From the IMG/VR virus record IMGVR_UViG_3300002460_000068: DNA of 42,107 bases; one strand, written 5' to 3'. Made by a program: the position numbers and the translations under genes. Below the pieces are notes generated by a model that worked only from the letters and a program-made list of their open reading frames with translations, did no database searches and was not told where the DNA came from. This DNA comes from a virus. The stretch's first letter is position 1; the number at the start of each line of letters is the position of its first letter. Shown here in pieces: positions 605-42,107 of the stretch.

Positions 605-608
605 AGAT

Positions 609-2737: not shown

Positions 2738-2746
2738 ATTCCCCCT

Positions 2747-2932: not shown

Positions 2933-3240
2933 TTATTAAGAAAAGAAGAAAACAGCCAATTTACAAAAGAAGTAAAAATGATAATTCCAAGAAAAACAAG
3001 GACTCTACCTTTCGCAATATCTTCTTTTAAACTGTCGATTTTGTTAGAAATGTTTTGGACTAAAAGACAATTTTTGTCTTGAGACTTTTCAATATATTCC
3101 AGTCGCGTCCCTATTTCAGCAATAACTACCGTATTCTTTTGAATCAACACCTGTTGATTCTCGACGATATGTTCCAAATGATCTAACCGGCCATTATCGA
3201 CCGTATCCACTCGCCTATGTTCTTTCCCGTCCCAAGCCAT
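2929..3240 (-). CDS. Coiled-coil protein with C-terminal TM anchor (XhlA-like architecture)
   Basis: 103 aa: an N-terminal helical/coiled region, then the C-terminal TM VLVFLGIIIFTSFVNWLFSSFL. The architecture resembles XhlA-type lysis-associated proteins. Confidence 0.35.
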   Translation of the reverse strand: MAWDGKEHRRVDTVDNGRLDHLEHIVENQQVLIQKNTVVIAEIGTRLEYIEKSQDKNCLLVQNISNKIDSLKEDIAKGRVLVFLGIIIFTSFVNWLFSSFLNK

Positions 3241-3249
3241 AATTCCCTT

Positions 3250-5346
3250 TTATTTATTCTCTAAAATTTCTATTCTTTTTTCCAGAGATTGTACTTTCAA
3301 ATTCAGTTCTTTAATCGCATTTAACAAAAGCACAGGAAGTTTATCATAATGAACGCCGTAATATACCTCTGACGAGCCTTCATTTTTAAAACTATATGTA
3401 AGTTCTGGAAGCAGCGGCAAAACATCCTGGGCCATGAGTCCCAGTTTCAATTTACTTCCATCTTTCTCATCCAAATCGTTATATTTATATGTATTGAGTT
3501 GCCTGACAATATCCAATGATCCGGTTAACGGAACAATGTTCTTTTTTAATCGGCGATCTGAGGCGACAAGAGCAATGCTGTTTGTGGCGGTATCTTGATA
3601 AGCCGCAACATCTCCGTCGGCCGTCCAAGTAGCCATGCTGATTCTGCCGTTAACCTCCAACACTTGCGTCGGCGCCGTCGTCCCGATGCCGACGTTGCCG
3701 CCTGTCAATATTTTCATCTTTGCTGTCGTGGCGGTATAAAAAGTCATACTATCCTCATCATTTCTATACCACACCCGTCCCTCACAATCCGCAGTAGCCC
3801 CATCACAAAACATAAGTTTACCGATTCCACTAGTCGATCCAGATAATATAACTATCCCAGTAGAAACTGTAGCGCCCCCGCCTATTGTTTGAACCTGAAG
3901 ATGTCCATCAGTAAAAACATCCGGAACTACTCCAATGCCAACATCTCCATTGTTCGCCATCCGTGCAACTTCAGTCGCGCCATTATTCCCCGTTTGGAAA
4001 ATAATATCTGCGCCAGTTGTTCCTACTCCCGAGGTAGAACGTAGCGAAAGTGTTGACGTCGTTGCAACTCCCCCGATTACCAACGGATCGGTAATCGAAG
4101 TTACGAACGTCGGAGCAGTTTGCATACCAACTACTGTCCCTGTCCCCGTCAAAGTATATTCTCCAAGTGCTCCAGCATTATCATAAAGGATACGAGTAGT
4201 TGTTCCGCTTGCGATTGTCGTTGTTCCTATAGTAAGCCCACCACCGGCGGCAGCTGCCGAAGTCCAATTCGTTCCGTCTGAAGTTAAAACATTCCCTGAT
4301 GTTCCAGGAACCGCATACGTTTCCGTAGACGCAACAAAATTAGTCCCATTCCCGACAAGTATTTTTCTTGAGGTCGCCGCATTCGCAATCCGAAATCCTG
4401 TCCCGACATTCACCACACCAGAAGTAATATTGGTGTCTGCTACCCCCAGTCCAGTCGTGAAATATCCTGCTCCGACAACATGAAGAGCTTGTGCCGGCGC
4501 CGTCGTCCCGATGCCGACGTTGCCGGCTTTAAGATAAAGAGTGTTGACAATAGCCCCAGAATTGACAGAGGTGATCGCCGCAATGGAATTTTGAGTGAGA
4601 GTGAAATCTGCCGCAGGAACAATATTTGTGATAACAGGACTTGAAATCGTTGGGGCTTGATTGAATACGGCCAGAGGAGAGCCGCTTGCAGAGCCGGTTT
4701 CGTCAGACAAAACTCCATAAAGTTGCGCAGATGTAGTCGCGGAAAAAACGCTTAAATTGTTAGTTGTGTATACCCCATTTGTTACCGTCCCTGCGTTTCC
4801 TGTGATATTCGTCTGGTCTCCAGTATTGCTACCGCTCAAATTTGACCCTGTAACCGCACCAGTAGCCGATAACGCTCCGCCTACGGCCACTGCCCCATTG
4901 CTAAACGTTATTGTCGGGTCTGTCCCGCTTAGATTAAACGTCCAAATATTCGACGCATTGCCACCAGCCCCCCAAGTCAAGGCTTCAAGTTCGGTCGCGT
5001 CAAATACAAAATCATTCGTTGAAATATCAATCCCCGCCTCACCCGTGGCATTGGTATCATCTAAAATGTCTAATTTTGCTCGGGTAATTACTTGCCCCGA
5101 GATCGTGATATAGTCCGGCGTTCCAGCTAGGGTAACATCTCCTGTGTTCGTACCAGAACCTGTCGCTATACTACAAGTTCCATCCCCATTGTCTGTTGGT
5201 GTGTCAGAAAATTTTATAGAATATCCATAGCAAGGAGATGTCCCATCCTCTTTACTAACCTCAACAAAACCTTTTCCCGAGGGTTGAGCGAAAACTAAAA
5301 AGTGGAAGAATAAACTAATAAAGATAGCTAACAAAAATCGTTGCAC
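3250..5346 (-). CDS. Tail fibre/spike protein with C-terminal intramolecular chaperone (peptidase S74) domain
   Basis: 698 aa with a G/T/S/N-rich beta-type body and a duplicated GNVGIGTTAP..L.V.G motif. The C-terminus SDRRLKKNI..LGLMAQDV..VHYDKL..LNAIKEL plus coiled coil is the auto-cleaving chaperone domain. GTG start at 5346 with RBS AGGAAG. Confidence 0.85.
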   Translation of the reverse strand: MQRFLLAIFISLFFHFLVFAQPSGKGFVEVSKEDGTSPCYGYSIKFSDTPTDNGDGTCSIATGSGTNTGDVTLAGTPDYITISGQVITRAKLDILDDTNATGEAGIDISTNDFVFDATELEALTWGAGGNASNIWTFNLSGTDPTITFSNGAVAVGGALSATGAVTGSNLSGSNTGDQTNITGNAGTVTNGVYTTNNLSVFSATTSAQLYGVLSDETGSASGSPLAVFNQAPTISSPVITNIVPAADFTLTQNSIAAITSVNSGAIVNTLYLKAGNVGIGTTAPAQALHVVGAGYFTTGLGVADTNITSGVVNVGTGFRIANAATSRKILVGNGTNFVASTETYAVPGTSGNVLTSDGTNWTSAAAAGGGLTIGTTTIASGTTTRILYDNAGALGEYTLTGTGTVVGMQTAPTFVTSITDPLVIGGVATTSTLSLRSTSGVGTTGADIIFQTGNNGATEVARMANNGDVGIGVVPDVFTDGHLQVQTIGGGATVSTGIVILSGSTSGIGKLMFCDGATADCEGRVWYRNDEDSMTFYTATTAKMKILTGGNVGIGTTAPTQVLEVNGRISMATWTADGDVAAYQDTATNSIALVASDRRLKKNIVPLTGSLDIVRQLNTYKYNDLDEKDGSKLKLGLMAQDVLPLLPELTYSFKNEGSSEVYYGVHYDKLPVLLLNAIKELNLKVQSLEKRIEILENK

Positions 5347-5629
5347 TAGAACTTCCTTTCCGTATGGCTTTAAAATTATTTAATTGACTGTACCCTTCCA
5401 AAACCAAACTGTCTAAAGGATTAACCAAATGACCAACCGTTGCGCTTGGATCAGTCCCGTCAATTCGATAACGAAATTGAGCCGTTTCGCAAGTAATGAT
5501 AACCTTCTTTGGTCTTGGGTTCGTCGTAAGTTTAGACGTTGTCAACCCAATAGCCGTATCTGCTACGGTTATTTGTTCAAAATCGTAACAAATGTATTTC
5601 CCTATATAGTGCTGACGCGCGTCGATCAT
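5315..5629 (-). CDS. Hypothetical virion-module protein
   Basis: 104-aa ORF between the internal-virion-like genes and the tail fibre, with overlapping junctions. Confidence 0.45.
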   Translation of the reverse strand: MIDARQHYIGKYICYDFEQITVADTAIGLTTSKLTTNPRPKKVIITCETAQFRYRIDGTDPSATVGHLVNPLDSLVLEGYSQLNNFKAIRKGSSSATIFVSYLY

Positions 5630-7107
5630 GGGGTAGACCTTTTTATAGATTTATATTTTTGAGGAATAACGCTTACTGGTTTACTATACTTTGCCGCTAA
5701 TTCATACATTTGCCTAATTTTTCTGTCGGGGCTACGCATAAAATCAACTATCTTGCTTGCTCCTTTTATTGTAACTGCCCGACCTAAATTCAAAGTCGCC
5801 CCTAAAGGATTCCCAGCTATAGCATGACCGGCACTTTGCAGGACTTCTTCTAAAGACCATAAATCAATAATAGGATGGATAAAACCACCACCAGCGTTTT
5901 GCCTGTAATATTTATTTGCCGCCGCTAAAATTTCATTCTGTGCTCCTCGTAAGTCAGAATACTGTTTTCTTGCCTCTCCATATCCTGATTGTCCTAAAGT
6001 TTTCTCAATAACGTTGTCAGTCTCTTCCGCAAGTTTATACCGTAAACTATTCAACAAATCTTTTTTTGAAAAATCAACTGCTTGACCGGATTTCCTTAAA
6101 GTTTGAATTTGATCGTTTAAATACTTCAAATAATCCTGCGCTTGCGTTGGATCGATTTCCCCAACTTTTTTTATATCTTGAGATGTTTTGTCTAAAGCCT
6201 TTGATAATTGAGGATTTGCTTTTAAAGCAACCATTCCTATATTTTTTTTAGCTTCAGTTAAAGAAGTGTCAACCAATGAAGATAAATCAATCTTCGCACC
6301 TTTATCCGTCGCCCCCTGCGACAATTTAGTCACATTATTTTTCCAAATCAATTCTTTGACTTGTTGGAAAGCTTGTAAATTTTCTTCTCTTGTTTGAGGA
6401 ATTCTTGATTCCATCCCTCCTGTGTCGGGATTAAGCAATTTTACATCAGGGAGATTATCTGAAATTGTTTTAACGACATTGACCTTTGAAGCCCTTATCG
6501 TTTTTGCTTCAATAGGGTTTTTTATTTTTGTTCCAATAGATTCATTGTAAAGGTTAAAAATTTTATCTTGAATTGGACGTGGAACTAAGTCTAAAGTTTT
6601 CTTTAGAATAGATGGTGCAGCTTTTACCGCTCCTGCCGTAGCAAGCCCTAAGCCTCCACCAACAATGGCATTTGTCCCTCTTTCTTGCAAAGATGTATCA
6701 GGATTTAAAATATCCTGCCCCGCCCCATAGGCAGCCCCTACGGCTACGCCCCCCTTCAATATTCCAAGCCCTTGAACAACTTTAGCCGCAGGAACAGCAA
6801 ACCCAGAAGCAAATCTAAGAACTTTCCCTTCCAATGTTTTTTGTTCAGGGAAAATTGCGCTTGCCTTATCTTCTCCAAAAACTCTGGCTACATTTGGTTT
6901 AATATTATTCGCAGTTAAATCGTTAATCGAACTTAAAATTGCACCGCCAGATTCTTTCCATGCGTTAGACGCATTTCTTCCTATCATCTGAGGGATAGAT
7001 TCTTTGGTTTGCTTCGCCGCAACCTGTGCCATTTCGTCAATATCGGCAGAAGTCGGGTTCCCCTCAAAACTCATTGTTACGCCATTACTAAATTTTATTT
7101 GTCCCAT
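5626..7107 (-). CDS. Internal virion/ejection-like protein
   Basis: 493 aa with Gly/Ala-rich putative membrane-active segments (GFAVPAAKVVQGLGILKGGVAVGAAYGAG). Its position is equivalent to T7 gp14-16. Confidence 0.45.
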   Translation of the reverse strand: MGQIKFSNGVTMSFEGNPTSADIDEMAQVAAKQTKESIPQMIGRNASNAWKESGGAILSSINDLTANNIKPNVARVFGEDKASAIFPEQKTLEGKVLRFASGFAVPAAKVVQGLGILKGGVAVGAAYGAGQDILNPDTSLQERGTNAIVGGGLGLATAGAVKAAPSILKKTLDLVPRPIQDKIFNLYNESIGTKIKNPIEAKTIRASKVNVVKTISDNLPDVKLLNPDTGGMESRIPQTREENLQAFQQVKELIWKNNVTKLSQGATDKGAKIDLSSLVDTSLTEAKKNIGMVALKANPQLSKALDKTSQDIKKVGEIDPTQAQDYLKYLNDQIQTLRKSGQAVDFSKKDLLNSLRYKLAEETDNVIEKTLGQSGYGEARKQYSDLRGAQNEILAAANKYYRQNAGGGFIHPIIDLWSLEEVLQSAGHAIAGNPLGATLNLGRAVTIKGASKIVDFMRSPDRKIRQMYELAAKYSKPVSVIPQKYKSIKRSTP

Positions 7108-7108
7108 A

Positions 7109-8164
7109 TTATTGTAAAATTTTATAAGTAAAACCGTTTGAAGCTTGGCCTGATTGGACTTTCCCTGGATTTTTTAAATCAGAATTTGGAGTTACTTTAA
7201 TAGATTTATATCCCTGCCTATTCATATCCCCACTTAATTGTCCCTGTATTTCATCCCGAGTTTCATTTAATGCTTCAATCCTATTCTTAGCGTCAATACT
7301 CATAATCCCTGTTACAGGGTCTAGTAAACCACGAAGAGTTTCTTGATTTTGCCAAGTGTTCAACATATTCCTTGCCTCTTCGCGAGCAGAATCCGTAATC
7401 ATACTCCCTGTTGCTCCTGGAGCCGAAGTAAGGCGGGCGTATTCTGTCGCCACCGTATAAACAGCCGTTGCTAAACGAGAAGCTTCTGGGTCGCCTGTAA
7501 TATTCAATTTTCCTGCTATAATTGCCCTGTTGACTAATGGAATTTTGCTTCTGTCAAAATTATCTGATAATGATAAAGCAACATCAGCATTTTTTCTAAA
7601 AGTTTTTTCAAACGATGTTACATTATTGTAAAGTTTTTCAAAATTCCCAGAACTTGTTTTATTAACAGTAAAATTTATATCCGCTTTTGCGGCATTATAA
7701 GAAGGGTCAATCTCTTTAGCGGCTTGAATAGCCATTATCCTTTGATTCCCCCTAGACGGGATTTGAGAAGGGACTAACTGTCCAGAAATTAAATTATCAG
7801 CTATTCCAGAGAGGTCTTGCTGATTTAAATTATAAATACTTTTTCCAGCTTCTTTTAAACGGATAGCTGATTCTTCTGTTTTGGGTTTATATTCTTCCTC
7901 TTTTGATTTTAACGAACCTAATCCAGGAAGATCAAGACTTCCAACCGTTCCTTTCACGACTGGCTCTGTTTTCCCTTCTAATAAACTCGTTAATCCCAAA
8001 AGATTTATCTTTTGCCCTGTTTCTTCTCCTGTCTCTCTTTGTTTTTTTAACCGTTCAGCAATTTGAGCGACAATATTAGCCAAAGCATTACCCTTCCCAC
8101 CCGTAGCTAATCCTCGTTCAAATCCTCGATGTATTCCAGCGCTTACCGCCGACCAATCAGCCAT
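7109..8164 (-). CDS. Internal virion/ejection-like protein
   Basis: 351 aa. Called by position within the internal-protein block. No specific motif. Confidence 0.4.
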   Translation of the reverse strand: MADWSAVSAGIHRGFERGLATGGKGNALANIVAQIAERLKKQRETGEETGQKINLLGLTSLLEGKTEPVVKGTVGSLDLPGLGSLKSKEEEYKPKTEESAIRLKEAGKSIYNLNQQDLSGIADNLISGQLVPSQIPSRGNQRIMAIQAAKEIDPSYNAAKADINFTVNKTSSGNFEKLYNNVTSFEKTFRKNADVALSLSDNFDRSKIPLVNRAIIAGKLNITGDPEASRLATAVYTVATEYARLTSAPGATGSMITDSAREEARNMLNTWQNQETLRGLLDPVTGIMSIDAKNRIEALNETRDEIQGQLSGDMNRQGYKSIKVTPNSDLKNPGKVQSGQASNGFTYKILQ

Positions 8165-8174
8165 TTTTTCCCCT

Positions 8175-9938
8175 TTATTTTGCTAAACTAAGAGTTATGT
8201 TATTACCAGATTTTAACCCACTGCCTCTTAACAATGCTTCAACCCCTAACGTTCCAAGAGATTGCCTCATAGCTATAACTTCCGATACTTTCGCTCCGTA
8301 AACTTGAGCAGCCATTTCCGCGCTCAAACCAGTAAGACCAACAAGGTCATCCATCATCCCTTTATCAACTCCCAAACTATCCTGCAAGGCTTGATATTGA
8401 GTTGTTCTCGCTAATTCAAACCTTCTTTGTTCAATTTCAGCGGATACTCCGCTTTCAGTTCGCGCTAATTGTTCTTTCATTTTAGCTTTTTCCGCTAAAT
8501 GTTCACCCGATCCATAAACACCGGCTAAATTATAAGCGGCGTCTAATTCTTTCTCGGCATTAGCATAACTTTCTCGTGTCCTTCGTAAAGTAGCTTGAAA
8601 ATATTCGTCATTCGCCGTTGGATATAGGTCAGTGGGTTTAGAACTAAGAATTTTCGATAATTCAAGTTGGGCCTGTTGACCAACTGGAGTTAATGCGCCA
8701 TTCCCAGAACTTAACTTACTTTGTAACGTCGTAAAATCTGCTGGAAGTTGATACGGCGCAGGTGATGGCGTCAACATAGAAGCCCCTAAAGACCCAGCCC
8801 CTAAAATATTCATTGGATTAGTCACGAATTCTCCAACCTTCTCTCCAAAAGTAGGAACTTTTTTTGCTGTTTCTGTCCCAACATTTTTAGCGGCAATAGC
8901 CGCGGCATCAGCTACCGTTGAAACTCCACCTGTCCCAGCAGGAACATTTGGGGGAGTATTGACAGTAGGCATTAAAGACATTGGAGCATTAGCTGTTGAT
9001 GGTATGGCAGTTGAATTAGGGATTGGTTGACCCAAAATATTCCCTTGCTGCCCTGAAGGTAAAGACATCATAGACGTTGATGTTGGAACTGTTGGCCCAG
9101 ATGGCGGAGTATATGGACTAACGTTAGGACTTATTGGGCTACCTAAAATATTCGGGGCAGTAAATCCCATCCCCGTTACACTTGGGCTTGGAATAGGTGC
9201 TTTTGGCGGTAATAATGACATGCTTCCTGTATTTACAACGCCAGCAGGGGTATTTGCCCCGTACCCTGGAGTATTTGGGAGCACAGGCCCTTTTGGAGCG
9301 GCAGGAATAGCCCCCGTAATCCCCGTCCCAACTCTTTCGAATCCAGTTAATCCTGGAGTTGCTGAAGCTAAATTCCCTGACCCTAAAAGTGGATTTGTTG
9401 CGATTGGATGGAGTGCGCCTTCGATCGCTCCACCAGCAATACCACCCGCTTTAGAAAGAAAGCCTGGTGCAGCTGCCTTTCCTCCTGCAATAGCTCCCCC
9501 GCTAGCCGCACCCTGTACTGCCCCACTAGCCGCCGCGCCTAAAATATCCAATGGTTTGCCAGCTTCCCCTAATTGTTCGGGATGATTAGATTTTGCGTAT
9601 TGATCCATTCCAGCGTTAGCCGCCGCACCTACCAAAATACCGCTTCCTGGAAGAATGAAATTTGCGACTGCACCAAGAATAGCAGGAGCAATACTCCTTA
9701 AAACCCCACCCTTTTTATGCATAATCCCATATTCGTCAGCGTGATCGCCATTTTTTTCAATAAGATGGTTTACTTCATGGGTTAAAGTTTCAAGATTCCA
9801 TTCTTTATTTCCCGTGTCTCTGACAAAAGCCAAGTTTTTGTGAGGGTCAGCAATCCCAAGAGAATCTGAAATTCCACTGTAAGGTAAAGTAGCCCATTCT
9901 TTTTCGTTTAATACTTGTACCGTGAATTTTTCTGCCAT
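8175..9938 (-). CDS. Internal virion-like protein with N-terminal HExxH motif and long G/A/P-rich region
   Basis: THEVNHLIEKNGDHADEYG carries an HExxH zincin-type motif. It is followed by about 300 aa of Gly/Ala/Pro/Ser-rich low complexity and a helical C-terminus. Confidence 0.45.
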   Translation of the reverse strand: MAEKFTVQVLNEKEWATLPYSGISDSLGIADPHKNLAFVRDTGNKEWNLETLTHEVNHLIEKNGDHADEYGIMHKKGGVLRSIAPAILGAVANFILPGSGILVGAAANAGMDQYAKSNHPEQLGEAGKPLDILGAAASGAVQGAASGGAIAGGKAAAPGFLSKAGGIAGGAIEGALHPIATNPLLGSGNLASATPGLTGFERVGTGITGAIPAAPKGPVLPNTPGYGANTPAGVVNTGSMSLLPPKAPIPSPSVTGMGFTAPNILGSPISPNVSPYTPPSGPTVPTSTSMMSLPSGQQGNILGQPIPNSTAIPSTANAPMSLMPTVNTPPNVPAGTGGVSTVADAAAIAAKNVGTETAKKVPTFGEKVGEFVTNPMNILGAGSLGASMLTPSPAPYQLPADFTTLQSKLSSGNGALTPVGQQAQLELSKILSSKPTDLYPTANDEYFQATLRRTRESYANAEKELDAAYNLAGVYGSGEHLAEKAKMKEQLARTESGVSAEIEQRRFELARTTQYQALQDSLGVDKGMMDDLVGLTGLSAEMAAQVYGAKVSEVIAMRQSLGTLGVEALLRGSGLKSGNNITLSLAK

Positions 9939-9939
9939 T

Positions 9940-10260
9940 TTAAATTCTCCTTTTTTTATTCCATCTTCTGTATCTAATAAATTTTACGTTTAGGAATGTT
10001 TTAAAGATATGGGCTTTAAATTTTCCCCAATTATCAAAAGATATTCTTGAATTCTCTCGACTTTTATCCGTTAAAAATTGCGCTATATAAAATATTTTTC
10101 CATCTGGCTCATCATCTAACACCGCCCACGGGTCAGCTTCTACGTATTTATTTTCATCATTCGTAAGGTAGAATGTTATAAACCCCCGCATTTTCCCGTC
10201 AATAATGATAGGCATTAGCCTACCCTTATTTAACATTTCTGAATAATATTTTTTGTTCAC
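9940..10260 (-). CDS. Hypothetical protein
   Basis: 106-aa ORF tightly packed in the tail module. Confidence 0.45.
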   Translation of the reverse strand: MNKKYYSEMLNKGRLMPIIIDGKMRGFITFYLTNDENKYVEADPWAVLDDEPDGKIFYIAQFLTDKSRENSRISFDNWGKFKAHIFKTFLNVKFIRYRRWNKKRRI

Positions 10261-10862
10261 TATACAAGCTGTTCAAGAGTAAGGTAAAGATTGTATTTTG
10301 GACTTCCAGCCCCGCCGGTTATCGTCGCAGTATAAGTTATCCCCGCCGCCGCTGAATTAAAAAAAGCGTTCCCTGTCGCCCCATTATTTGTTGAAGTTAA
10401 AGTAATATCCGACGCCGGCGAAAGAGTTTTCGCGCTCACTGCGTCCGTCCAACTTATCAGTGTATTAAGTGTTCCTGCCGCACCGGCAGTATGACAAATG
10501 TGGTATACATTTATTTTAAATAATCCCGCCGCCGCTGGGGTATAAAGCGTCGTTGCCAAAATATCCCCAGCCTGCGCAGTCAACTGCGCCGTTGCTACAA
10601 TCGTTGAATGAGCCAACCCCGAAGTATTCCATTCTAAATACTGCCACGTTGAGTTTACGTCATCATAAAAATATAATCTTCTAACCGTACCGGAAATATA
10701 TAATAAATGTTCCCCCCCCTCCCCCGTCCACGTCGGAATATCAGTAGATACCCTCATCTGGTATCTACCCAAATTAACGATATTTTTTACGTCATTAACG
10801 AAATCAAGAAGGTCTGTCTCTTTTCGGAATTTAGCTGAAAATGAAAAATCTTCAATTTTCAA
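10260..10862 (-). CDS. Tail-associated protein (beta-rich)
   Basis: 200 aa with a T/A/G/S-rich C-terminal half typical of fibre or receptor-binding-type proteins. Contains a G8 homopolymer (C8 on the plus strand at 10712-10719). Confidence 0.4.
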   Translation of the reverse strand: MKIEDFSFSAKFRKETDLLDFVNDVKNIVNLGRYQMRVSTDIPTWTGEGGEHLLYISGTVRRLYFYDDVNSTWQYLEWNTSGLAHSTIVATAQLTAQAGDILATTLYTPAAAGLFKINVYHICHTAGAAGTLNTLISWTDAVSAKTLSPASDITLTSTNNGATGNAFFNSAAAGITYTATITGGAGSPKYNLYLTLEQLV

Positions 10863-10863
10863 T

Positions 10864-13551
10864 TCAAACCACCGCCCTTGTTTGCACGTCTTGCCCTAAC
10901 GGGTTTCCATATAAATCAATCCCATAAATTGTCGGAGCAGGGTTAGATGAATTATCTTTTATTTTAATTTGAAACATGTTTTCAACTGTCCCAATATCAA
11001 ATAATGTTGTTCTCCCAAACGCTAATTCGTCATTATGGTCATAACTAAATGTTTCCGTTTCCGACCATGATACATTCCAATCAAAACGATATTGAAGATT
11101 CATATCTAACGTTGAACCAAAGGTTATTTCTTTATAATTTATTCCAAGCTGAAGCATTCTCATAGCTAAACTTACCAACGTTGGTTTGATTTTTCCTGAA
11201 ACCCAATACGCGTTTATGTTAGAACCATTATCGGAATTTCCACTTTCCATTTGAAACAGATATCCTTCCCGTCCAGCCGCATATAAAATTTTAGCTTTAT
11301 TTGTGGACATAACATAAATTGAAGAATTAAATATCTGTCCATCATACGGATAAATTCCTCCCGTTCTATAATCAAGGACAAAAGCATAATTTACTGATGT
11401 ATCGCTCCCCAAAACACAATAAAGAATGTATTCATAAGAATCTTGTTTGACTACGGCATGGAATAAATCTGAATAGATTAAGTTTATATCAGAAAAACTT
11501 AACGGCTGGTCATCGGCGGACGCGAAAAGGTCATTTGTCTCTTCTGATAAATGATCACTCAAAATTTGGAGACCATATCCATCAAATATCGCTATTTTTT
11601 TATCTGTCGTAATAAAAATTAAAACTGTCCCTATTTCACCACCCATATCAACTTCTTTAATTGAATAATGAGCTGGCGTTCCTACTCCTAAAACTTGATC
11701 AACTTGAAAAGTCGGGTTAGAACCAAGATAAGTTACCCGATGGACAGAATACCGTTTAAAAACATAAAGTTTCCCTTTTAATATCCTTACTCCAGTAATA
11801 ATATCTCCGTCATTGGTGTCAAAATTAAGAGTATTGCTCGCTCCCCAAGCTGTATAATCTGAAAGAGTAGAATATCGCCCTTGATTTGGACTACCTCTTA
11901 TTCCAAAAATAAAAGAATAGTTTTTCCATATAATAAAAAATTTACCTAACGGAGCAGCTGAAACTACCGAAGCGTTTCCTGTCCCCGTGTATGTGTAAAG
12001 TCCAATATCCGTATTTATTAACGCTCTCCCTGACTGCCAATCCCCAAACGTCCAGTAACGAGACGAAGTAATTGCTAAAATGTCCGCAGAATATGCCGCT
12101 GTTGGAGGAGTAAAATTTGCCGTATAACGGGCTATGCCTTTAGAAATTCGTATCTCATCCATCCATCCATTTAGATATTGAGAATTTGCCGTATCTGCGC
12201 CGATTAGCAAAGCAGCGGAAATATTTGGGATAGAAGTTGAATCAGTCGTTGAACCTAAGCTTACTCCATCTATATAAGTCGTAAATACTCCGTTATATCT
12301 TACTAATGCTACGTGATACCATGTATTTGTCGAATGCGTCCATGATTTTGCATGTGAAATTACAGTTGCACCATTTTCCATTGTAAATGTAATAATATTA
12401 CTTGTAGTTGCCAATCTCCAGTATGGATTTCCTGCCGCAGTTTGACATATAAATATTTGAGTTCCAGACGTTGAATTAAATCTTACTTGAAAATCAAGCG
12501 TAAAATCGCCTGTATCGAAATACCAATCATCACTATCTGAAACAGTTACATAATCACCAGTCCCATCAAATAATATAGAAGCCGTTCCAAATTTTTTTTG
12601 AGCAGTATCTAGTTGAGCATCTCCAACCGCCGTTACGGGTTTTCCTATTTCATCAGTAATTGTAGTAGAAGCATCTGTCCCGTCTCCATGAAGCATTAAT
12701 TTCGTATAAGAATCCCATGCCGCCCCCCCGCCAATCGCGTCCCATACCCCATCCGGCGTTCCTACCACGTTTTTATCCATTCTATACAACTGTGTGCCAA
12801 ATATTCCTAAAAGCATATTTTTAGAAGAAAAATCGAATAAGGCTTCTCCATCATCCCCACGAATCCCATCCGTAATATAAACTTCAAAACAAGCGTCATG
12901 AATTTCAGTTGTCCACGTTGTCCCATCATAAACGCTCATTGTCCCATCTGGATAAATTATGTCGTAATTATCCGCTCCCCATAAAATATAATTTGAACTG
13001 CTTATTGTAAACGCGCCACTTAACACAAGATGATATTGAGTGCCTGCGGTTAAAGAAGGATTTGTCGCGAAGGTGAAAGTTACCCAAGCGTAACTTGTAG
13101 TAAGGGTATCTGAAATATCAACGGCAGTAGCTGTCCCATTCGTTACGGCTGAACCAGAAGGGAGTCCTGAAGAATTAGTTTGGATTGTAAGCGTGATTGT
13201 ATCTGTTCCTGCTGGAGTGCCTGTATTTTTAAGCCATAACCTTATTTTTGTAACTGGGCCGGAAGTATTGCACTTAAAGCCTTGTGAGATTTGAGTGTTA
13301 GAAGCGGTATCTCTTAAACTATGATCTAATGTTTGATATCCCGGGGGATAAAATACATCTAAATTATCCGTTTCAACTGGCGTTGAATTGATTTTTGAAA
13401 ATCCCCCTCTTTTTATAAGACGATTGATAGACCCCGCGCAATGAAAATTCCTCATATTGGGACTTTTATTAAGCCCCATTTTAATAATCGGAGTTTTAGT
13501 ATCTTGCCCCCCCGACCAGTCATCTATGACCGCTATAGCTTGACGTATCAA
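10864..13551 (-). CDS. Large tail protein (tail tubular B/nozzle position) with LamG-like jelly-roll insertion
   Basis: 895 aa. The central segment LMLHGDGTD...ILFDGTGDYVTV..DFTLDF.VRF....WYHVALVRYNG.FTTYIDG...LLIGAD....YLNGWMDEIRISKG matches the Laminin_G_3 (concanavalin-like) signature. Size and position match T7 gp12-like proteins. Confidence 0.55.
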   Translation of the reverse strand: MIRQAIAVIDDWSGGQDTKTPIIKMGLNKSPNMRNFHCAGSINRLIKRGGFSKINSTPVETDNLDVFYPPGYQTLDHSLRDTASNTQISQGFKCNTSGPVTKIRLWLKNTGTPAGTDTITLTIQTNSSGLPSGSAVTNGTATAVDISDTLTTSYAWVTFTFATNPSLTAGTQYHLVLSGAFTISSSNYILWGADNYDIIYPDGTMSVYDGTTWTTEIHDACFEVYITDGIRGDDGEALFDFSSKNMLLGIFGTQLYRMDKNVVGTPDGVWDAIGGGAAWDSYTKLMLHGDGTDASTTITDEIGKPVTAVGDAQLDTAQKKFGTASILFDGTGDYVTVSDSDDWYFDTGDFTLDFQVRFNSTSGTQIFICQTAAGNPYWRLATTSNIITFTMENGATVISHAKSWTHSTNTWYHVALVRYNGVFTTYIDGVSLGSTTDSTSIPNISAALLIGADTANSQYLNGWMDEIRISKGIARYTANFTPPTAAYSADILAITSSRYWTFGDWQSGRALINTDIGLYTYTGTGNASVVSAAPLGKFFIIWKNYSFIFGIRGSPNQGRYSTLSDYTAWGASNTLNFDTNDGDIITGVRILKGKLYVFKRYSVHRVTYLGSNPTFQVDQVLGVGTPAHYSIKEVDMGGEIGTVLIFITTDKKIAIFDGYGLQILSDHLSEETNDLFASADDQPLSFSDINLIYSDLFHAVVKQDSYEYILYCVLGSDTSVNYAFVLDYRTGGIYPYDGQIFNSSIYVMSTNKAKILYAAGREGYLFQMESGNSDNGSNINAYWVSGKIKPTLVSLAMRMLQLGINYKEITFGSTLDMNLQYRFDWNVSWSETETFSYDHNDELAFGRTTLFDIGTVENMFQIKIKDNSSNPAPTIYGIDLYGNPLGQDVQTRAVV

Positions 13552-27673: not shown

Positions 27674-27901
27674 ATGAAAAAATACGTAACATATTGGATA
27701 GACGCTCACGGTAATTATAAATTACCATCTGTTAGCGGTAAATCACGGTACATAATAAATTTTGCTCCAACAGCAGAGAGATTAATCGTGTTAGCAGATA
27801 ATTTTATCACGGCATTTAATTCAACATGGGGCAAAATTTACGGAATAATTGACAAAAATACTGTAGCTTATATATACCGGTCAGAGATAATGATTAAATA
27901 A
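27674..27901 (+). CDS. Early hypothetical protein
   Basis: 75 aa, preceded by AGGAGGGGGGCAACGAA. Confidence 0.55.
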   Translation: MKKYVTYWIDAHGNYKLPSVSGKSRYIINFAPTAERLIVLADNFITAFNSTWGKIYGIIDKNTVAYIYRSEIMIK

Positions 27902-27926
27902 ACCAACACCAAGGGAGGGCGACGAG

Positions 27927-28274
27927 ATGAAAATTTCTAAAAATAAAACAGAGTGGTACTCTAATACAACAAACTATGATTATCCATGGTGTGGAGGAAA
28001 AAGAATAATCATAAAATTATGGCATGACATTAATTTGGGGAAAAAATGTACAGTGCAAGAAGAAAAATGCTCCAATTATCAAGGTAAAATAGACGGGCGA
28101 AAAACATTAACCGACTACAGTACCACGGAGTTACACGCCGTATGCATAGCCTCAGCCTTAGGATTATTAAATATTAACGGGGATGCATATGAGGATCCGA
28201 CTGATTATTATCATACTATAAAAATACATAATAGCCCGTACAAATTTTTAGCTCACGGGCACGTCGTACGGTAA
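27927..28274 (+). CDS. Early hypothetical protein
   Basis: 115 aa, preceded by the conserved GGAGGGCGACGAG-ATGAAA motif. Confidence 0.55.
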   Translation: MKISKNKTEWYSNTTNYDYPWCGGKRIIIKLWHDINLGKKCTVQEEKCSNYQGKIDGRKTLTDYSTTELHAVCIASALGLLNINGDAYEDPTDYYHTIKIHNSPYKFLAHGHVVR

Positions 28275-28296: not shown

Positions 28297-28524
28297 ATGA
28301 AAAGAAAAATAATTTTAAATTATCCAAAATACACAGCTACTATACAGGACTATCAGTATACCAGCCGAGCTCCCGTATCCGTCCGTATCGCGGGATTGAC
28401 GGACGGGGAGTGCAAAAATATTTTAGGCGAACCATGTTTTTTTTATAAATCCGCGAATGCCATGTCGATGGCGGAGGGGATCACGACGGCAAAAAATATC
28501 ATAGCGGAATTGTCTATTAAATAA
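28297..28524 (+). CDS. Early hypothetical protein
   Basis: ATG at 28297 preceded by GGAGGGCGGCGAA. The track start at 28282 is a GTG inside the RBS. Confidence 0.55.
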   Translation: MKRKIILNYPKYTATIQDYQYTSRAPVSVRIAGLTDGECKNILGEPCFFYKSANAMSMAEGITTAKNIIAELSIK

Positions 28525-28548
28525 CCAACACCAAGGGAGGGCGACGAG

Positions 28549-28701
28549 ATGAAAGAGATAAAAAGGAAATTCTTAGATGGGATGTTAAAAGGATTGATAT
28601 ATACGGGACAAACTATGGTAAATTTTAAACTCAATGAAATATACACTGACTCTTTGACTGGCGATAAATATCAAATCATCGAAATTAAAGAGGTTAAATA
28701 A
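28549..28701 (+). CDS. Early hypothetical protein (50 aa)
   Basis: Not in the ORF track. Preceded by GGAGGGCGACGAG. MKEIKRKFLDGMLKGLIYTGQTMVNFKLNEIYTDSLTGDKYQIIEIKEVK. Confidence 0.5.
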   Translation: MKEIKRKFLDGMLKGLIYTGQTMVNFKLNEIYTDSLTGDKYQIIEIKEVK

Positions 28702-28721
28702 TTAAACAGGAGGGCGGCGAG

Positions 28722-28934
28722 ATGAAAACCAAAAAAAATAAAAAACATAAAGTTATTTATTACGGGGAAACGATTTTAGAGGCGGCAGAAAATTGCCTCG
28801 CAGACCAAGGATTTTTCGACGGAGAAAAAAGTTATAAAATTATTAGCGGAAAATTTTTAAGGGGAAAAATAAAATGCGGATTTACACCAAATCGGTGTGA
28901 GGAGTGGGAATTTGATATTATTTTAAAACGATAA
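28722..28934 (+). CDS. Early hypothetical protein
   Basis: 70 aa, preceded by GGAGGGCGGCGAG. Confidence 0.55.
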   Translation: MKTKKNKKHKVIYYGETILEAAENCLADQGFFDGEKSYKIISGKFLRGKIKCGFTPNRCEEWEFDIILKR

Positions 28935-29627: not shown

Positions 29628-29792
29628 ATGAAAATAATTTTAGATTTAACGGAACCCGAGTTAAAACGCATTATCTTTTTTTTGGAAGATGGATTGGAAA
29701 CCTTTGAAACGGTTGACCAGGACGAAATGGATGATGTGGAATTACTGAACAAACTTTTAACGCAGTTGACGACGCATGGGCAAAAGGAATGA
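29628..29792 (+). CDS. Small acidic protein, paralog A (54 aa)
   Basis: Not in the ORF track. MKIILDLTEPELKRIIFFLEDGLETFETVDQDEMDD... About 90 percent nucleotide identity over about 110 bp with 30328..30450. Confidence 0.5.
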   Translation: MKIILDLTEPELKRIIFFLEDGLETFETVDQDEMDDVELLNKLLTQLTTHGQKE

Positions 29793-29823: not shown

Positions 29824-30324
29824 ATGAAAATAACAGAAAAATGGCTTAATAAAAAAAATGCATGCGCCGACGGAAAAAATTGGGTTCTTGAAAATTATCC
29901 TGACACCGACGGAACAGAGTTAGTAGAAAATCTTATACGCGCCCAAAAATTAGATTGGGCTAACTGGCTGATCGTCCGGATTATGGCCAGGCCGCAATAT
30001 CTCGCCTACGCAATTTTTGCAGCAGAACAAGTTATAGATTTTTTCGAAAATAAATACCCACACGATAGACGTCCTTGGTTAGCAATTGACGCGGCAAAAA
30101 AAAGTTTGGCAGATGATACGTCGAGAAATTCGGCCGCCGCAGGGGACGCAATGGCCGCAAGGGCCGCCGCAAGGGCCGCAGGGGGCGCCGCATGGGCCGT
30201 CGCAGAGACCGCAGGGGCCGCATGGGCCGTCGCAGGGACCGCAGGGGCCGCAGGGGACGTCATAAAAATTAAAATATTAAAATACGGGACAGGATTGTTA
30301 AAAAAAATTAGGGAGATAGAATAA
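29824..30324 (+). CDS. Ala/Trp-repeat protein (NAC..G..W N-terminal domain + AAWA/AARA repeats)
   Basis: 166 aa. The N-terminus is [20 protein letters not shown]...LDWANWLI. The C-terminus is the GC-rich repeat [42 protein letters not shown]. The architecture recalls a recurrent alpha-helical family of unknown or immunity-like function. Confidence 0.6.
30188..30247 (+). repeat. Tandem repeat 2 x 30 bp (plus a partial third) inside the Ala-rich gene
   Basis: ccgcatgggccgtcgcaga/ggaccgcagggg at 30188-30217 and 30218-30247, 29/30 identical. A strongly GC-rich island in an AT-rich genome. Confidence 0.9.
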
Positions 30325-30327: not shown

Positions 30328-30450
30328 ATGAAAATAATTTTAGACTTGATGGAAAAAGAGTTAAAACGAATTATATTTTTTTTAGAGGATGGATTGGAAA
30401 CCTTTGAAACGGTTGACCAAGACGAAATGGATGATATCGTTTATCCATAG
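30328..30450 (+). CDS. Small acidic protein, paralog B (40 aa, truncated relative to A)
   Basis: Not in the ORF track. MKIILDLMEKELKRIIFFLEDGLETFETVDQDEMDDIVYP. Confidence 0.4.
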   Translation: MKIILDLMEKELKRIIFFLEDGLETFETVDQDEMDDIVYP

Positions 30451-30592: not shown

Positions 30593-30621
30593 TTGACACA
30601 AAAAAATAGGGATGGTATCAT
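30593..30621 (+). promoter_or_regulatory. Promoter P2 (TTGACA-17-TATCAT)
   Basis: TTGACA at 30593-30598, a 17-nt spacer, TATCAT at 30616-30621. It lies upstream of the replication module. Confidence 0.65.
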
Positions 30622-30785: not shown

Positions 30786-31418
30786 ATGCCTCCTGGATTT
30801 ATAATTTTACAACGCAAAATTTTTGACTGGTATGGATACCAAAACCCTAAACGCTTACAATTATGGATAACACTGCTCCTGTTGGCTACGTTTAAAGATC
30901 ATCGCATAGTTTGGAACGGAAAACCTATTGATTTACACCGAGGAGAATTGATCACAGGCCGCAGAAAGCTCGTCGGGTATTGCAAAATGAGTGAAAGTTA
31001 TGTAGAAAAACTACTTTTAGAGTTCGAAATAGAGGGGCAAATAAGACAACAAAAAACAAACACAAGTCGTTTAATCACAATACTTAAATACAATGACTAT
31101 CAAAATAGTAACAACAATGAGGACAACGGAGAGGACAACGGAGAGGACAACAAAAAGACAACGGAGAGACACAACAGAACAATGTATAACAAAGAAAACA
31201 AGGAAAACAATATATCTATACCGCCAGCTTTAGAAGAAGTTTTGGCTTACAAACTCGAGATAAACGGGAATATAGAGCCAAGCCGCTTTATAGACTTTTA
31301 TGAGTCGAATGGCTGGATGGTAGGCAAAAACAAAATGAAATCGTGGAAAGCCGCATACCGCAGGGCATGTTCGGAATGGGATAAGGAGAAAAAATTTATA
31401 AAATTTGAGGGGATATGA
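30786..31418 (+). CDS. Replisome organizer / replication initiation protein (DnaD-like ends)
   Basis: 210 aa. N-terminal wHTH-like F.ILQRKIFDW....P..LQLWI.LL..A......W.G..I.L.RGELITG...L......SES.V...L..FE.EGQI.......SRLITILKYNDYQ. C-terminal FIDFYESNGWMVGKNKMKSWKAAYRRA, the typical DnaD/phage Rep tail. Internal iterons are present. Confidence 0.7.
   Translation: MPPGFIILQRKIFDWYGYQNPKRLQLWITLLLLATFKDHRIVWNGKPIDLHRGELITGRRKLVGYCKMSESYVEKLLLEFEIEGQIRQQKTNTSRLITILKYNDYQNSNNNEDNGEDNGEDNKKTTERHNRTMYNKENKENNISIPPALEEVLAYKLEINGNIEPSRFIDFYESNGWMVGKNKMKSWKAAYRRACSEWDKEKKFIKFEGI
31119..31170 (+). repeat. Iteron-like 12-bp tandem repeats (gaggacaacgga x about 3.5) inside the replisome-organizer gene
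   Basis: Copies lie at 31119, 31131, 31143 (partial) and about 31156. They encode NEDNGEDNGEDN and are followed by an A-rich tract with gaaaacaa x2 (31190-31210). Confidence 0.75.
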
Positions 31419-31433
31419 AAGGAATAAAGCGAT

Positions 31434-31607
31434 ATGGAAGGAAATAAATTTGGTGTATCTATTAGTTCTACCGGCATTCTTATTTTAATGCCCCCAACGA
31501 GAGAATTAACTAAAGCAGAGGCTTTGGAATTTTCCGCCTGGATTGTTGTGCTTACTGGTGGACGTGAAAAATTTTTACCAATTTTGGATGAAGTAGAGAG
31601 TTCATAA
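31434..31607 (+). CDS. Hypothetical small protein (57 aa)
   Basis: Not in the ORF track. MEGNKFGVSISSTGILILMPPTRELTKAEALEFSAWIVVLTGGREKFLPILDEVESS. Confidence 0.4.
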   Translation: MEGNKFGVSISSTGILILMPPTRELTKAEALEFSAWIVVLTGGREKFLPILDEVESS

Positions 31608-31611
31608 AGCG

Positions 31612-31644
31612 GTTCGCCCCTCGTTCAAGGGCGTGGATTGAAAC
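31612..31644 (+). CRISPR. Solitary type I-C-like CRISPR repeat (SRU-1)
   Basis: gttcgcccctcgttcaagggcgtggattgaaac. A GC-rich hairpin (CGCCC(C)U/AGGGCG) is followed by the GTGGATTGAAAC 3' handle. About 28/32 identical to the copy at 36434. It lies in the 47-nt intergenic space directly before the helicase gene, with no flanking second repeat. Confidence 0.75.
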
Positions 31645-31654
31645 TAAACGGAAT

Positions 31655-32731
31655 ATGAAAAACATTATAGATTTTTTTACCGAAGAACGTGCGGAACGGG
31701 AAGCAAATGACCCTAAAAAATTTTGCTGGTACGGGATCGCGGCCTTAGATGACGCGTTTTACGGTATTCGTAAAAACGATTTGATTGTTATTGGGGCGGA
31801 TTCGGGCAGTGGGAAAACTGAGATCGGTCTTATGATCGCCAGACATAATGCCATAGCGGGCCGAAAAGTGGCTTTATTTAATTTAGAAGGTGGTCATCGC
31901 GCCGCGATCCGCCGGTTAAAATGGCACGATATACGCAATGAATATTACGGTAACGGATGGACGGAAAACGGGTTTGTGGATATGGACTATCGAAAATGGT
32001 TAAACGGGGAACTTAAAGGGACAATTTTGGATAAGGTGGAAACAAAGGTTTTAGAGCAATGGCAGGAAAAATATAAGGACAATTTTTATGCCGCGGAAAT
32101 AAATAGAGGATTTGGAATAGAGCAGTTGCAAATAGAGTTAACGGATTTTCACAGTATGACGCCTACAATGCAAGGAGAAAAAATTATAAGAATGACTTCA
32201 TTCAACGTTGATTTAATTGTGATTGACCACCTGCAATATTTTGATTTACCCGACGGTGAAAAAGAAATAATCGGATTGACTAAAATTTTAAAATCAGTTA
32301 GAGACATTGTCCAATTTTATGACATTCCAGTTATTTTGATTTCACATCTGGTTAAAAAAATGAAAGACAGGGGATTGCCGGATCAAGCGGATTTTTATGG
32401 CACGAGTAATATTCCTAAAATGGCGACGGCGGCGATCACTATCTCGCCGGCGTTTGGACTAGCTAATTTATCGGCGGGGATTTATCCGACTTATTTTAGG
32501 ATTGTCAAAAGTCAAATTCCAAACGTAAAATCAAATTGCGGGATATTGATAAATTTTGATTCGTACACGGGAAATTACTCCAAGGATTATACGCTTCACT
32601 CTTTGGATAAATTCGGGATGCCCTCATCGGGGAATGCCATTGAAGAACAATTTTTACCGCACTGGGCGAAAAAAAAGCCGATAAAAATTGAACCCAAAGA
32701 AGTCCAAACCGAAATTGGGTGGCAAGAATGA
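31655..32731 (+). CDS. DnaB-C-terminal/RecA-like replicative helicase ATPase
   Basis: 358 aa. Walker A VIGADSGSGKTEIGL, Walker B DLIVIDHLQYF, and ISHL..K (arginine-finger region). It lacks the DnaB N-terminal domain. Confidence 0.7.
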   Translation: MKNIIDFFTEERAEREANDPKKFCWYGIAALDDAFYGIRKNDLIVIGADSGSGKTEIGLMIARHNAIAGRKVALFNLEGGHRAAIRRLKWHDIRNEYYGNGWTENGFVDMDYRKWLNGELKGTILDKVETKVLEQWQEKYKDNFYAAEINRGFGIEQLQIELTDFHSMTPTMQGEKIIRMTSFNVDLIVIDHLQYFDLPDGEKEIIGLTKILKSVRDIVQFYDIPVILISHLVKKMKDRGLPDQADFYGTSNIPKMATAAITISPAFGLANLSAGIYPTYFRIVKSQIPNVKSNCGILINFDSYTGNYSKDYTLHSLDKFGMPSSGNAIEEQFLPHWAKKKPIKIEPKEVQTEIGWQE

Positions 32732-35901: not shown

Positions 35902-36315
35902 ATGTTTAGAAAAAAAGATGGTGAGATTGATGTAGTAAAAGTAACAATTGCGATAATGATTTCTTTTATTGTGTTTAGAATATTATTTATGTCAATTATG
36001 CCTCAATATACAGTTTGGGAACAAGGTTTAGCTGGGCAAGCCTAATTAGCAAAAGCTGATTACAGTAAAAAGGTTGCTGTTCAGGAGGCTCAAGCTAAAA
36101 AAGATTCTGCAGGTTTGTTAGCCGATGCGGAGGTACTTAGGGCTGAAGGTGTGGCTAAAGCAAATAAAATTATCGGAGAAAGTCTTAAAGAGAATGAACA
36201 ATATCTTCGATATTTATGGATTACGGATGTTGCAGGAAAAGATGTAAATAAAACAGTCGTCTATATTCCGACTGAAGCAAATATTCCTATTTTAGAAGCG
36301 ACTAGGTATAAATAA
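35902..36315 (+). pseudogene. SPFH/band-7-C-terminal-like membrane protein interrupted by an in-frame TAA
   Basis: ATG at 35902 (RBS AAAGGAAAA), a TM helix (VTIAIMISFIVFRILFMSIM), an in-frame TAA at 36043-36045, then LAKADYSKKVAVQEAQAKKDSAGLLADAEVLRAEGVAKANKIIGESLKENEQYLRYLWI. The distal part has no ATG/GTG start or RBS of its own. Confidence 0.55.
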
Positions 36316-36416
36316 AAGTGTGAGTGTCAAACAGAAATTTAAAATAAATTTTAATTACCGATTAAGTACAAAACAGTAATAAATAAGTAATTAAATTTTA
36401 GGTGAGGAGTGTAAAA

Positions 36417-36503
36417 ATGGATAATTTAGACGAGTCGCCCCTCGTGCAGGGGCGTGGATTGAAACATGCTGAAGCAGATGATCAAGGGGATTGTTTGCTA
36501 TGA
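36417..36503 (+). CDS. Mini-ORF (28 aa) containing the second CRISPR-like repeat
   Basis: Strong RBS GGTGAGGAG lies 7 nt upstream of the ATG at 36417. MDNLDESPLVQGRGLKHAEADDQGDCLL. Its TGA overlaps the ATG at 36500 of the Lar-like gene (ATGA). Confidence 0.35.
   Translation: MDNLDESPLVQGRGLKHAEADDQGDCLL
36434..36465 (+). CRISPR. Solitary type I-C-like CRISPR repeat (SRU-2)
   Basis: gtcgcccctcgtgcaggggcgtggattgaaac. A perfect 7-bp stem CGCCCCT/AGGGGCG with a 5-nt loop, then GTGGATTGAAAC. This is the canonical I-C repeat architecture, 32 nt. No intact second repeat is nearby. Confidence 0.8.
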
Positions 36504-37093
36504 AGGCAGAGAGGTGCGGAATGGAAAGTAAAGAACTTAAAAAATGTCCATTTTGCGGTAAGAAGCCTAAATTTTTTGAACAAGGGTTTGATTGCAATGG
36601 AAAAATTTTTTACCAAATAAGATGTACTGAAAGGAAATGTTTATTACCTTCAACAGGCAATTTTTCCTGTGAATTAGGAAAAAAAGAAGCTGTTAAAGTA
36701 TGGAACACCCGCGCCGAGCCGATGGGGTTGAGTACGTTGGATGAGAGAAAGATTATTGATGCCGTACAAAGATATTGTAGAAAAACTCATTATACGTTAG
36801 AAGCATATCACGAAAAATTTGGTGTATTGATTTGTTTTATACAAGATGTTTTAGTTAAAAACTTTGGTCAGCCCGCGATCCCTAGCGTAGAGGAAATTGA
36901 GACAGTAATTAAAAAACATTTAGGATTCGATAGAGTAAAAGTTACTGCTAGGAATCAAAAATTTGCACAACATGCAAAAACAAATGAAGATTTTTTAATA
37001 TGGACAATATTTGATAGTTTAGCCCAAGCCATCCACGAGGCGTTTGAGGAAAGGAGTTTAGATGAAAAAAAATTTATTGAAACTAAACCATAA
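36500..37093 (+). CDS. Lar-family-like restriction alleviation domain protein with C-terminal extension
   Basis: The N-terminus KKCPFCGKKP.......C.......IRC....C........EAVKVWNTR is the Lar signature. About 120 aa of unknown function follows. An alternative start is the ATG at 36521. Confidence 0.6.
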   Translation: MKAERCGMESKELKKCPFCGKKPKFFEQGFDCNGKIFYQIRCTERKCLLPSTGNFSCELGKKEAVKVWNTRAEPMGLSTLDERKIIDAVQRYCRKTHYTLEAYHEKFGVLICFIQDVLVKNFGQPAIPSVEEIETVIKKHLGFDRVKVTARNQKFAQHAKTNEDFLIWTIFDSLAQAIHEAFEERSLDEKKFIETKP

Positions 37094-42014: not shown

Positions 42015-42107
42015 CACATGAAATATTTTTTAATTTTTATTTGGTTTATCTTTTTCTTCCCACTTTATCTTTTAATGCTTCGTCTAGCTATCGAAGGGGC
42101 TGGAACA
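42015..42107. repeat. Terminal direct repeat, copy 2 (identical to 1..93)
   Basis: Exact 93/93 match with the window start. Confidence 0.95.

Follow-up and report, generated by a model that had tools for sequence, protein, structure and literature searches.

Two type I-C CRISPR repeats, one canonical and one diverged, as candidate RNA anti-CRISPRs in the genome of an SU10-like phage

The phage genome and the position of the two repeats

The stretch of DNA analysed here, called the window in the following, is the virus contig IMGVR_UViG_3300002460_000068 with a length of 42,107 nt. It starts and ends with an exact direct repeat of 93 nt (positions 1-93 and 42015-42107). The window is therefore a circularly closed assembly and represents a complete genome of 42,014 bp. 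Its GC content is low, between 0.33 and 0.45 per 2 kb; that the phage is AT-rich had been stated in the first-pass annotation. Among the genes we found an SU10-type portal and adaptor, a capsid protein and a terminase as well as recombination proteins of the ERF and YqaJ type. The portal and adaptor together with the capsid and terminase genes show that we deal with a tailed, SU10-like phage. Within the 59 open reading frames (ORFs) scanned for domains neither cas genes nor tyrosine integrase or serine recombinase domains were detected. The phage is present in 18 contigs from several samples, and many samples yielded its genome as a free circle. The contigs that we compared are 99.7-100% identical. 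Since they are clonal, conservation within the species is uninformative and selection acting on the repeats is not measurable.

The sole polymorphism seen is in contig L128 of the same phage, which has 60 nt between the positions 30237 and 30275 where the window has 37 nt. A GC-rich tandem repeat (GGCCGC...) with a periodicity of 9, 12 and 21 nt is located at 30132-30260, inside an Imm5-like ORF (29824-30324), and the Imm5-like gene is flanked by a direct repeat of 108 nt with 90% identity (29628-29735 and 30328-30435). A further exact duplication of 32 nt (AACCAACACCAAGGGAGGGCGACGAGATGAAA) at 27901-27932 and 28523-28554 comprises the ribosome-binding site and the start of two early genes; a third copy at 28696-28727 is 72% identical.

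The element flagged in the first-pass annotation, here copy 1, is a diverged type I-C CRISPR repeat (GTTCGCCCCTCGTTCAAGGGCGTGGATTGAAAC) on the plus strand at 31612-31644, and is recognized as such by sequence match and by its SRUFinder listing, together with a Rfam match below the gathering score. It sits in an intergenic gap of only 47 nt (31608-31654). An ORF of 57 amino acids (31434-31607, plus strand) stops 4 nt before it, and 10 nt past it follows the ATG of a replicative helicase of 358 amino acids (31655-32731, plus strand), which is DnaB-like according to profile matches. Still further upstream a DnaD-like helicase loader or replication initiator is encoded on the plus strand (30786-31418; phrog_2514, 2e-25). 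Location, strand and spacing of the element were thus given correctly before, as was the helicase. The 33-mer is unique in the window at up to three mismatches, and 100 shuffles of the sequence gave no match at all. The 57-amino acid ORF belongs to a genuine small-protein family for which homologues were found. We also tried it as an Acr candidate; it has no PDB, Pfam or PHROG match, and no similarity to known Acr was detected. Likewise, searches of Pfam, PHROG and PDB found no known Acr or Aca genes near the two copies. Upstream of copy 1 the best sigma-70-type promoter prediction is a strong site (TTGACA-17-TATCAT with a TG, 30593-30621, plus strand), called by its match to the consensus and about 1 kb away, and not a single terminator-like site was found between this promoter-like site and the element. 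Copy 1 is part of a plus-strand unit, and the earlier expectation that it would be transcribed agrees with this predicted arrangement.

The tail GTGGATTGAAAC is found twice in the genome, and its second occurrence revealed another repeat. This copy 2 (GTCGCCCCTCGTGCAGGGGCGTGGATTGAAAC) is located at 36434-36465 on the same strand as copy 1 and 4,789 nt (about 4.8 kb) downstream of it. It is a canonical type I-C repeat of 32 nt, as judged from its identity to array repeats, its fold and its SRUFinder listing. Copy 1 had been described as solitary, that is, without a second repeat in the phage, and this description has to be corrected. When both strands are scored against the 32-mer of copy 2, copy 2 itself reaches 32/32, copy 1 29/32 (read from 31613) and the next best site 18/32. 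A CRISPR array would have at least two repeats with spacers of about 33-37 nt, whereas the phage has two copies at a distance of 4,789 nt and all other sites stay at or below 18/32. As had been noted before, there is no array, and none of the 59 ORFs is a cas gene.

Copy 2 lies in a gap of 184 nt (36316-36499) and overlaps a possible ORF of 28 amino acids (MDNLDESPLVQGRGLKHAEADDQGDCLL), which encloses it (36417-36503, plus strand). This putative ORF, read from the sequence, may or may not be translated. It is preceded at a distance of 6 nt by a good Shine-Dalgarno motif, GAGGAG (AGGTGAGGAGtgtaaaaATG), and its stop codon TGA shares bases with the ATG at 36500 within ATGA. Directly 3′ to copy 2 we find a Lar-like restriction-alleviation gene (36500-37093, plus strand; PF14354, phrog_599) with an alternative start at 36521. 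Copy 2 ends 34 nt before the start codon at 36500. Such an anti-restriction neighbor fits an anti-defence role of copy 2. A second Lar-like (PF14354) gene of the phage, with 67 amino acids, is located at about 401-604 (from the gene calls of contig L126). Just upstream of copy 2 the ORFs 35902-36045 and 36115-36315 match an N-terminal part (8-44) and a C-terminal part (69-132) of phrog_11227 ('protease'), and this pair of fragments looks like a split or frameshifted gene.

Both copies are on the plus strand in short gaps of plus-strand gene blocks. Their flanks have nothing in common outside the repeat. Thus, acquisition or duplication concerned the repeat as such.

Type I-C identity and predicted folding

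We scanned a collection with one genome per species using TCGCCCCTCGNNCANGGGCGTGGATTGAAAC, and 85 array loci were returned. Copy 2 is letter-for-letter identical (32/32) to the array repeats in many metagenome-assembled genomes (MAGs), where the arrays comprise 2-31 copies. The MAGs with identical arrays are labelled Deltaproteobacteria, Syntrophales, Thermoanaerobaculia, Elusimicrobiales, Peptococcales, Halanaerobiales and others. In a Halanaerobiales MAG (L062, GC of the locus 0.40) the array is located directly downstream of a complete cas3-cas5c-cas8c-cas7-cas4-cas1c-cas2 operon and is co-oriented with it. All seven genes score above the NCBIfam cut-off, as Cas3, Cas5c, Cas8c/Csd1, Cas7/Csd2, Cas4, Cas1c and Cas2. 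The position of this array next to a co-oriented I-C operon fixes the subtype as I-C and the sense orientation as GTCGCC...ATTGAAAC, and this is the orientation which both phage copies have relative to the plus-strand gene blocks. The assignment as type I-C repeat in the orientation of the crRNA therefore holds, for copy 2 by identity to these arrays and for copy 1 at 29/32. With the Rfam model CRISPR-DR9 copy 1 scores 23.0 bits and copy 2 24.7 bits, both under the gathering score of 45.

A host array with a near-identical repeat had been expected for the flagged element, and real I-C arrays identical to copy 2 do exist. The variant of copy 1, on the other hand, is in no array of the genome scan. 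A scan of metagenomes for this variant returned sporadic G1>T repeats within otherwise normal arrays and none with the stem mismatch. Thus, copy 1 is a diverged derivative and not the mimic of another host repeat. An exact search with copy 1 in IMG/VR gave 0 matches, in a collection lacking this contig under that sequence.

Both copies are already known as catalogued RNA anti-CRISPR candidates since 2023. The SRUFinder output of Camara-Wilpert et al. 2023 (PMC10651486) contains two filtered I-C entries for IMGVR_UViG_3300002460_000068 (C687J35021_10000237), namely 31614-31644 (TCGCCCCTCGTTCAAGGGCGTGGATTGAAAC, I-C, 93.5% identity to repeat I-C:3813) and 36434-36465 (the sequence of copy 2, I-C, 100% identity). 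The coordinates are the same as those of the window. The same SRU pair is catalogued for the sister contig _000069 in reverse orientation (PMC10651486). The contig analysed here appears in the catalogue only and is absent from the candidates which were tested in that study (PMC10651486).

A type I-C repeat consists of a 5′ overhang of 2 nt, a stem of 7 bp, a pentaloop and a 3′ overhang of 11 nt, and Cas5c cleaves after nucleotide 21 (PMC8524198). [quoted passage not shown] Copy 2 has all these canonical features, that is, the 2-nt overhang, the 7-bp stem, the pentaloop and the 11-nt 3′ overhang UGGAUUGAAAC. When the repeat is folded by itself, the canonical hairpin has the lowest energy (-12.9 kcal/mol); within a context of 72 nt another fold is more stable than this hairpin. 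In architecture and in its identity to arrays beside an I-C operon, copy 2 equals the type I-C (Dvulg) repeat, the substrate of Cas5c (Cas5d), and differs from it in not being part of an array.

Copy 1, which is not in an array either, departs from copy 2 by three changes. The 5′ overhang is altered. Either it has gained a T, or the repeat comprises 32 nt (31613-31644) with G1>T and follows an unrelated G; the two readings are equivalent. One loop base is changed from G to T, and in the sixth stem pair a G to A change leads to a C·A mismatch. The stem is thereby reduced to 5 bp, the C·A mismatch and 1 bp. None of the changes touches the 11-nt handle TGGATTGAAAC or one of the five basal stem pairs. 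For copy 1 the canonical fold is calculated at -6.3 kcal/mol and a register-shifted hairpin at -10.7 kcal/mol; the latter dominates the predicted ensemble and pairs the UGGAU of the handle. In silico copy 1 thus lacks the full canonical I-C architecture, and its hairpin is predicted to be weakened with the canonical fold disfavored. Of the I-C hairpin and handle that had been assigned to copy 1, the stem base and the 11-nt handle are confirmed, whereas the hairpin in its canonical form is not the preferred one.

Relatives of the phage and isolated I-C repeats in other viral contigs

Outside this phage the next homologues of the helicase have at most 51% identity. With so distant relatives an analysis of covariation or conservation is impossible. 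In the closest helicase relative (L134) and in two further ones (L135 and L136) the stop codon of the loader gene overlaps the ATG of the helicase gene, and there is no repeat or spacer at the junction of loader and helicase. We also inspected the contigs of two homologues of the 57-amino acid ORF (L132, 68% identity; L133, 60% identity). There the ORF is followed by unrelated sequence, and the I-C tail is absent after the ORF in both. A search of viral contigs gave no relatives of the Lar-like gene, and the search with the helicase gave one locus of 31% identity, which is without repeat. As the closest relatives found have overlapping loader and helicase genes and lack the element, copy 1 is a lineage-specific insertion and not a conserved part of the replication operon.

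Isolated repeats of this subtype are common in IMG/VR, where other contigs have between one and three of them. A related pattern matched 39 contigs, and in most of these the copies are isolated and do not form arrays. We surveyed the ORF context around the SRUs at these 39 loci; the survey was too noisy, as the contigs with high GC content give many spurious ORFs. In L014 (and also in L002) two different isolated I-C repeats lie on one strand at 862-893 and 4540-4571, thus 3.7 kb apart. One of them is located 8 nt after an ORF and just before a portal gene, the other one 15 nt before a gene of the sigma-70 family. L026 (IMGVR_UViG_3300037067_002223) is a viral contig of 43 kb that encodes a DnaD-like protein 43.5% identical to that of the window. 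Its I-C repeat (GTCGCCCCCCGCGTGGGGGCGTGGATTGAAAC, 7913-7942) is antisense and within the 5′ end of an apparent plus-strand ORF. Viral copies of the I-C repeat are therefore not all intergenic and in sense orientation. In L036 (IMGVR_UViG_3300034358_000028) two I-C-like repeats (TTTCGCCCGGCTCTTCCGGGCGTGGATTGAAAC) are found at 8442-8524. Their starts are 53 nt apart and the spacer is about 21 nt long. This pair is a mini-array of the type that has been described for viral crRNA-like regulators.

A possible role as RNA anti-CRISPRs

We suggest that both repeats act as Racr-type RNA anti-CRISPRs against a type I-C system of the host. This reading builds on the analogy with RacrIC1, and we assign to it a probability of about 0.6. 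RacrIC1 is located 11 nt downstream of acrIC5 within one transcript, and it restored the infectivity of a phage targeted by a type I-C system (Camara-Wilpert et al. 2023, Nature 623:601, PMC10651486). The elements described here share with this class that they are isolated mimics of a CRISPR repeat on a virus, that they are of subtype I-C and that neither an array nor cas genes accompany them. Copy 1 is moreover embedded in an operon shortly after a small ORF, at a distance of 4 nt as compared to 11 nt for RacrIC1. There are also differences. The phage has two copies 4.8 kb apart of which one is degenerate. RacrIC1 follows an acr gene, whereas for the small ORF before copy 1 no resemblance to known Acr was detected. 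Furthermore, no promoter is predicted within 250 bp, and copy 1 lies right in front of a replication gene that is essential. The first-pass annotation had proposed an RNA anti-CRISPR as well. This proposal is strengthened as the element matches the published class and is contained in its list of candidates; it is weakened as the element is not solitary and as copy 1 is degenerate with a disfavored hairpin.

The mode of action could be the following. The repeats would be transcribed as part of phage mRNAs. Then Cas5c of the host would recognize the stem base and the UGG...AUUGAAAC tail and would cut after the stem, that is, after position 31633 in copy 1 and after position 36454 in copy 2, and would keep hold of the 11-nt handle. 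Cas7 and Cas8c could now assemble on the phage RNA further downstream, which is no guide, and finally Cascade subunits would be titrated off the genuine crRNAs. For both copies we infer the transcription, the binding of Cas5c and the inhibition of interference. Copy 2, a perfect mimic, is probably the main effector. Copy 1 may still be a decoy, though a weaker one, or it may be in decay. We argue for a reduced activity of copy 1 because the hairpin is predicted to be weakened and because the loading of Cas proteins is expected to mask the start of the helicase gene.

The RNA anti-CRISPR reading is favored by the identity of copy 2 with repeats of real I-C arrays, by the sense orientation of both copies, by the promoter-like site upstream with no intervening terminator-like site, by the lack of cas and integrase domains in the 59 ORFs, by the precedent of RacrIC1, by the SRUFinder entries for both elements and by the isolated I-C repeats of other IMG/VR contigs. 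The three changes of copy 1 are all outside the stem base and the handle, which are the parts reported as critical for Cas5c. In addition, the elements conform to the definition of an SRU, being known repeats which occur in a virus, in intergenic position and without other repeats or cas genes. On the other side, Cas5c and Cas7 loaded 10 nt before the ATG of the helicase gene would be expected to occlude the ribosome-binding site, at a cost to the phage. The predicted folds, of copy 1 in isolation and of copy 2 in 72 nt of context, and the failure to find known Acr or Aca genes nearby also count against this reading. Among 1,443 spacers from the 85 loci with matching arrays none targets the phage, and there are only chance-level matches of 13-19 nt. 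A promoter within 250 bp upstream served as a criterion for the choice of Racr candidates to be tested (PMC10651486). In the plus strand of the regions 31362-31611 and 36184-36433 we found no sigma-70-like site with at least 9 of 12 matches to the consensus, which may not be the consensus of the host. RacrIC1 itself is co-transcribed with the upstream gene, and a missing near promoter therefore does not exclude membership in the SRU class.

For copy 1 other explanations have to be weighed. It is less probable, at a level that still has to be reckoned with, that copy 1 is a decaying and neutral duplicate, or a second acquisition, and that only copy 2, if either, is an anti-CRISPR RNA. Such a decay would account for the three changes relative to the array consensus, for a variant that is seen in no scanned array and for a canonical hairpin which is outcompeted by the shifted fold. 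Within 250 bp copy 1 also lacks a promoter-like site of its own, and Cas proteins loaded there would mask the helicase start. Against decay it can be said that the changes spare the handle of 11 nt and the stem base of 5 bp, both of which Cas5c is reported to need. If these 21 positions out of 32 are taken as critical, the chance that three changes miss all of them is about 0.04 in a post hoc calculation, and copy 1 is kept in every contig of the phage, though these contigs are clonal. It had further been speculated that copy 1 is a Cas5c cleavage site which could couple the Cas activity of the host to the processing of the phage mRNA. The stability or translation of the helicase mRNA would then depend on the I-C activity of the host. 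The predicted cut would indeed be 21 nt upstream of the helicase ATG and within a polycistronic unit; copy 2 is likewise 34 nt before a start codon, and the second SRU of L014 is 15 nt before one. In the closest helicase relatives, however, the loader gene overlaps the helicase gene and the junction bears no such element, and after the homologues of the 57-amino acid ORF unrelated sequence follows. Thus, the replication module has no need of such a site, and the coupling, which finds no backing in these relatives, appears quite improbable to us. With similarly little confidence one could imagine the shifted hairpin of copy 1 as a conditional switch. In a host rich in Cas5c and Cas7 the RNA would then be captured and cut 21 nt before the helicase ATG. 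Translation of the helicase or the stability of its mRNA would change, and replication would sense the I-C system. Overall we hold it for improbable that the degenerate copy next to the helicase gene has a regulatory role of its own.

The remaining explanations concern both copies. Viral Cracrs directed to type I-C exist (Liu et al., bioRxiv 10.1101/2024.10.29.618823), and like the elements of our phage they are repeat-derived viral RNAs aimed at type I systems, I-C included. The two copies could accordingly give rise to crRNA-like guides in which the handle is joined to downstream phage sequence and with which the host Cascade would repress a cas or creT promoter. The unique sequence after each copy, beginning with TAAACGGAATATG... 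and ATGCTGAAGCAG..., could be a pseudo-spacer. Yet the second, degenerate repeat which flanks a Cracr is missing at array spacing from either copy. We searched the 541 kb of candidate host loci around the 85 matching arrays for a TTC PAM together with a seed of at least 9 nt for either downstream flank and found none, and no cas or creT promoter in the loci scanned matched a pseudo-spacer. What follows copy 1 is the ribosome-binding site of the helicase gene and then its coding region, so that this sequence is constrained for another purpose. We therefore give the guide function little credit. Even less plausible is that the repeats are recombination or attachment sites for the integration into, or the exchange with, CRISPR arrays of the host. 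Phage attP sites which mimic CRISPR repeats and so enable prophages to integrate into CRISPR arrays were reportedly described by Varble and co-workers in 2021. The perfect identity of copy 2 with host arrays over 32 nt is a feature in common with these sites, and the phage does encode the ERF and YqaJ recombination proteins. Different from the attP mimics, the phage has two copies, is found as a free circle and has no integrase or serine recombinase in its 59 ORFs; in addition none of the 85 array loci contains phage genes. Finally, the CRISPR-DR9 scores below the gathering threshold would allow for a chance GC-rich hairpin, or for an ordinary intergenic stem or terminator, and this we consider hardly credible. 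The shuffled sequences gave zero matches and the identity to the arrays is 29/32 and 32/32. A T-tract is missing after either copy and neither is called terminator-like, and the relatives are without any hairpin at the position of copy 1. The generic hairpin was rejected because copy 2 matches real arrays exactly.

If the two repeats are active as RNA anti-CRISPRs, they would be a further natural example for type I-C, found in an environmental phage lineage that is uncultured. With one perfect and one degenerate repeat, they would then also be a ready-made test of the features that a repeat needs for sequestration based on Cas5c. As both elements are catalogued and the class is established, our finding adds detail to the annotation and no new principle.

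With regard to the host, some of the distant helicase homologues are labelled Omnitrophota, and the repeat of a I-C array in an Omnitrophota MAG (L080) is identical to copy 2 except for one loop base (1 nt). These observations are only a hint to Omnitrophota as host. One helicase homologue with 45% identity is encoded on a contig of an Omnitrophota MAG (L143, positions 1-13000, JGI 3300037067), inside an integrative element. This element also carries a Rep_O-like gene, an integrase, a TIR-domain protein, a ResIII helicase, a N6/N4 methylase and a SMC-like ATPase, and it looks like a defence island.
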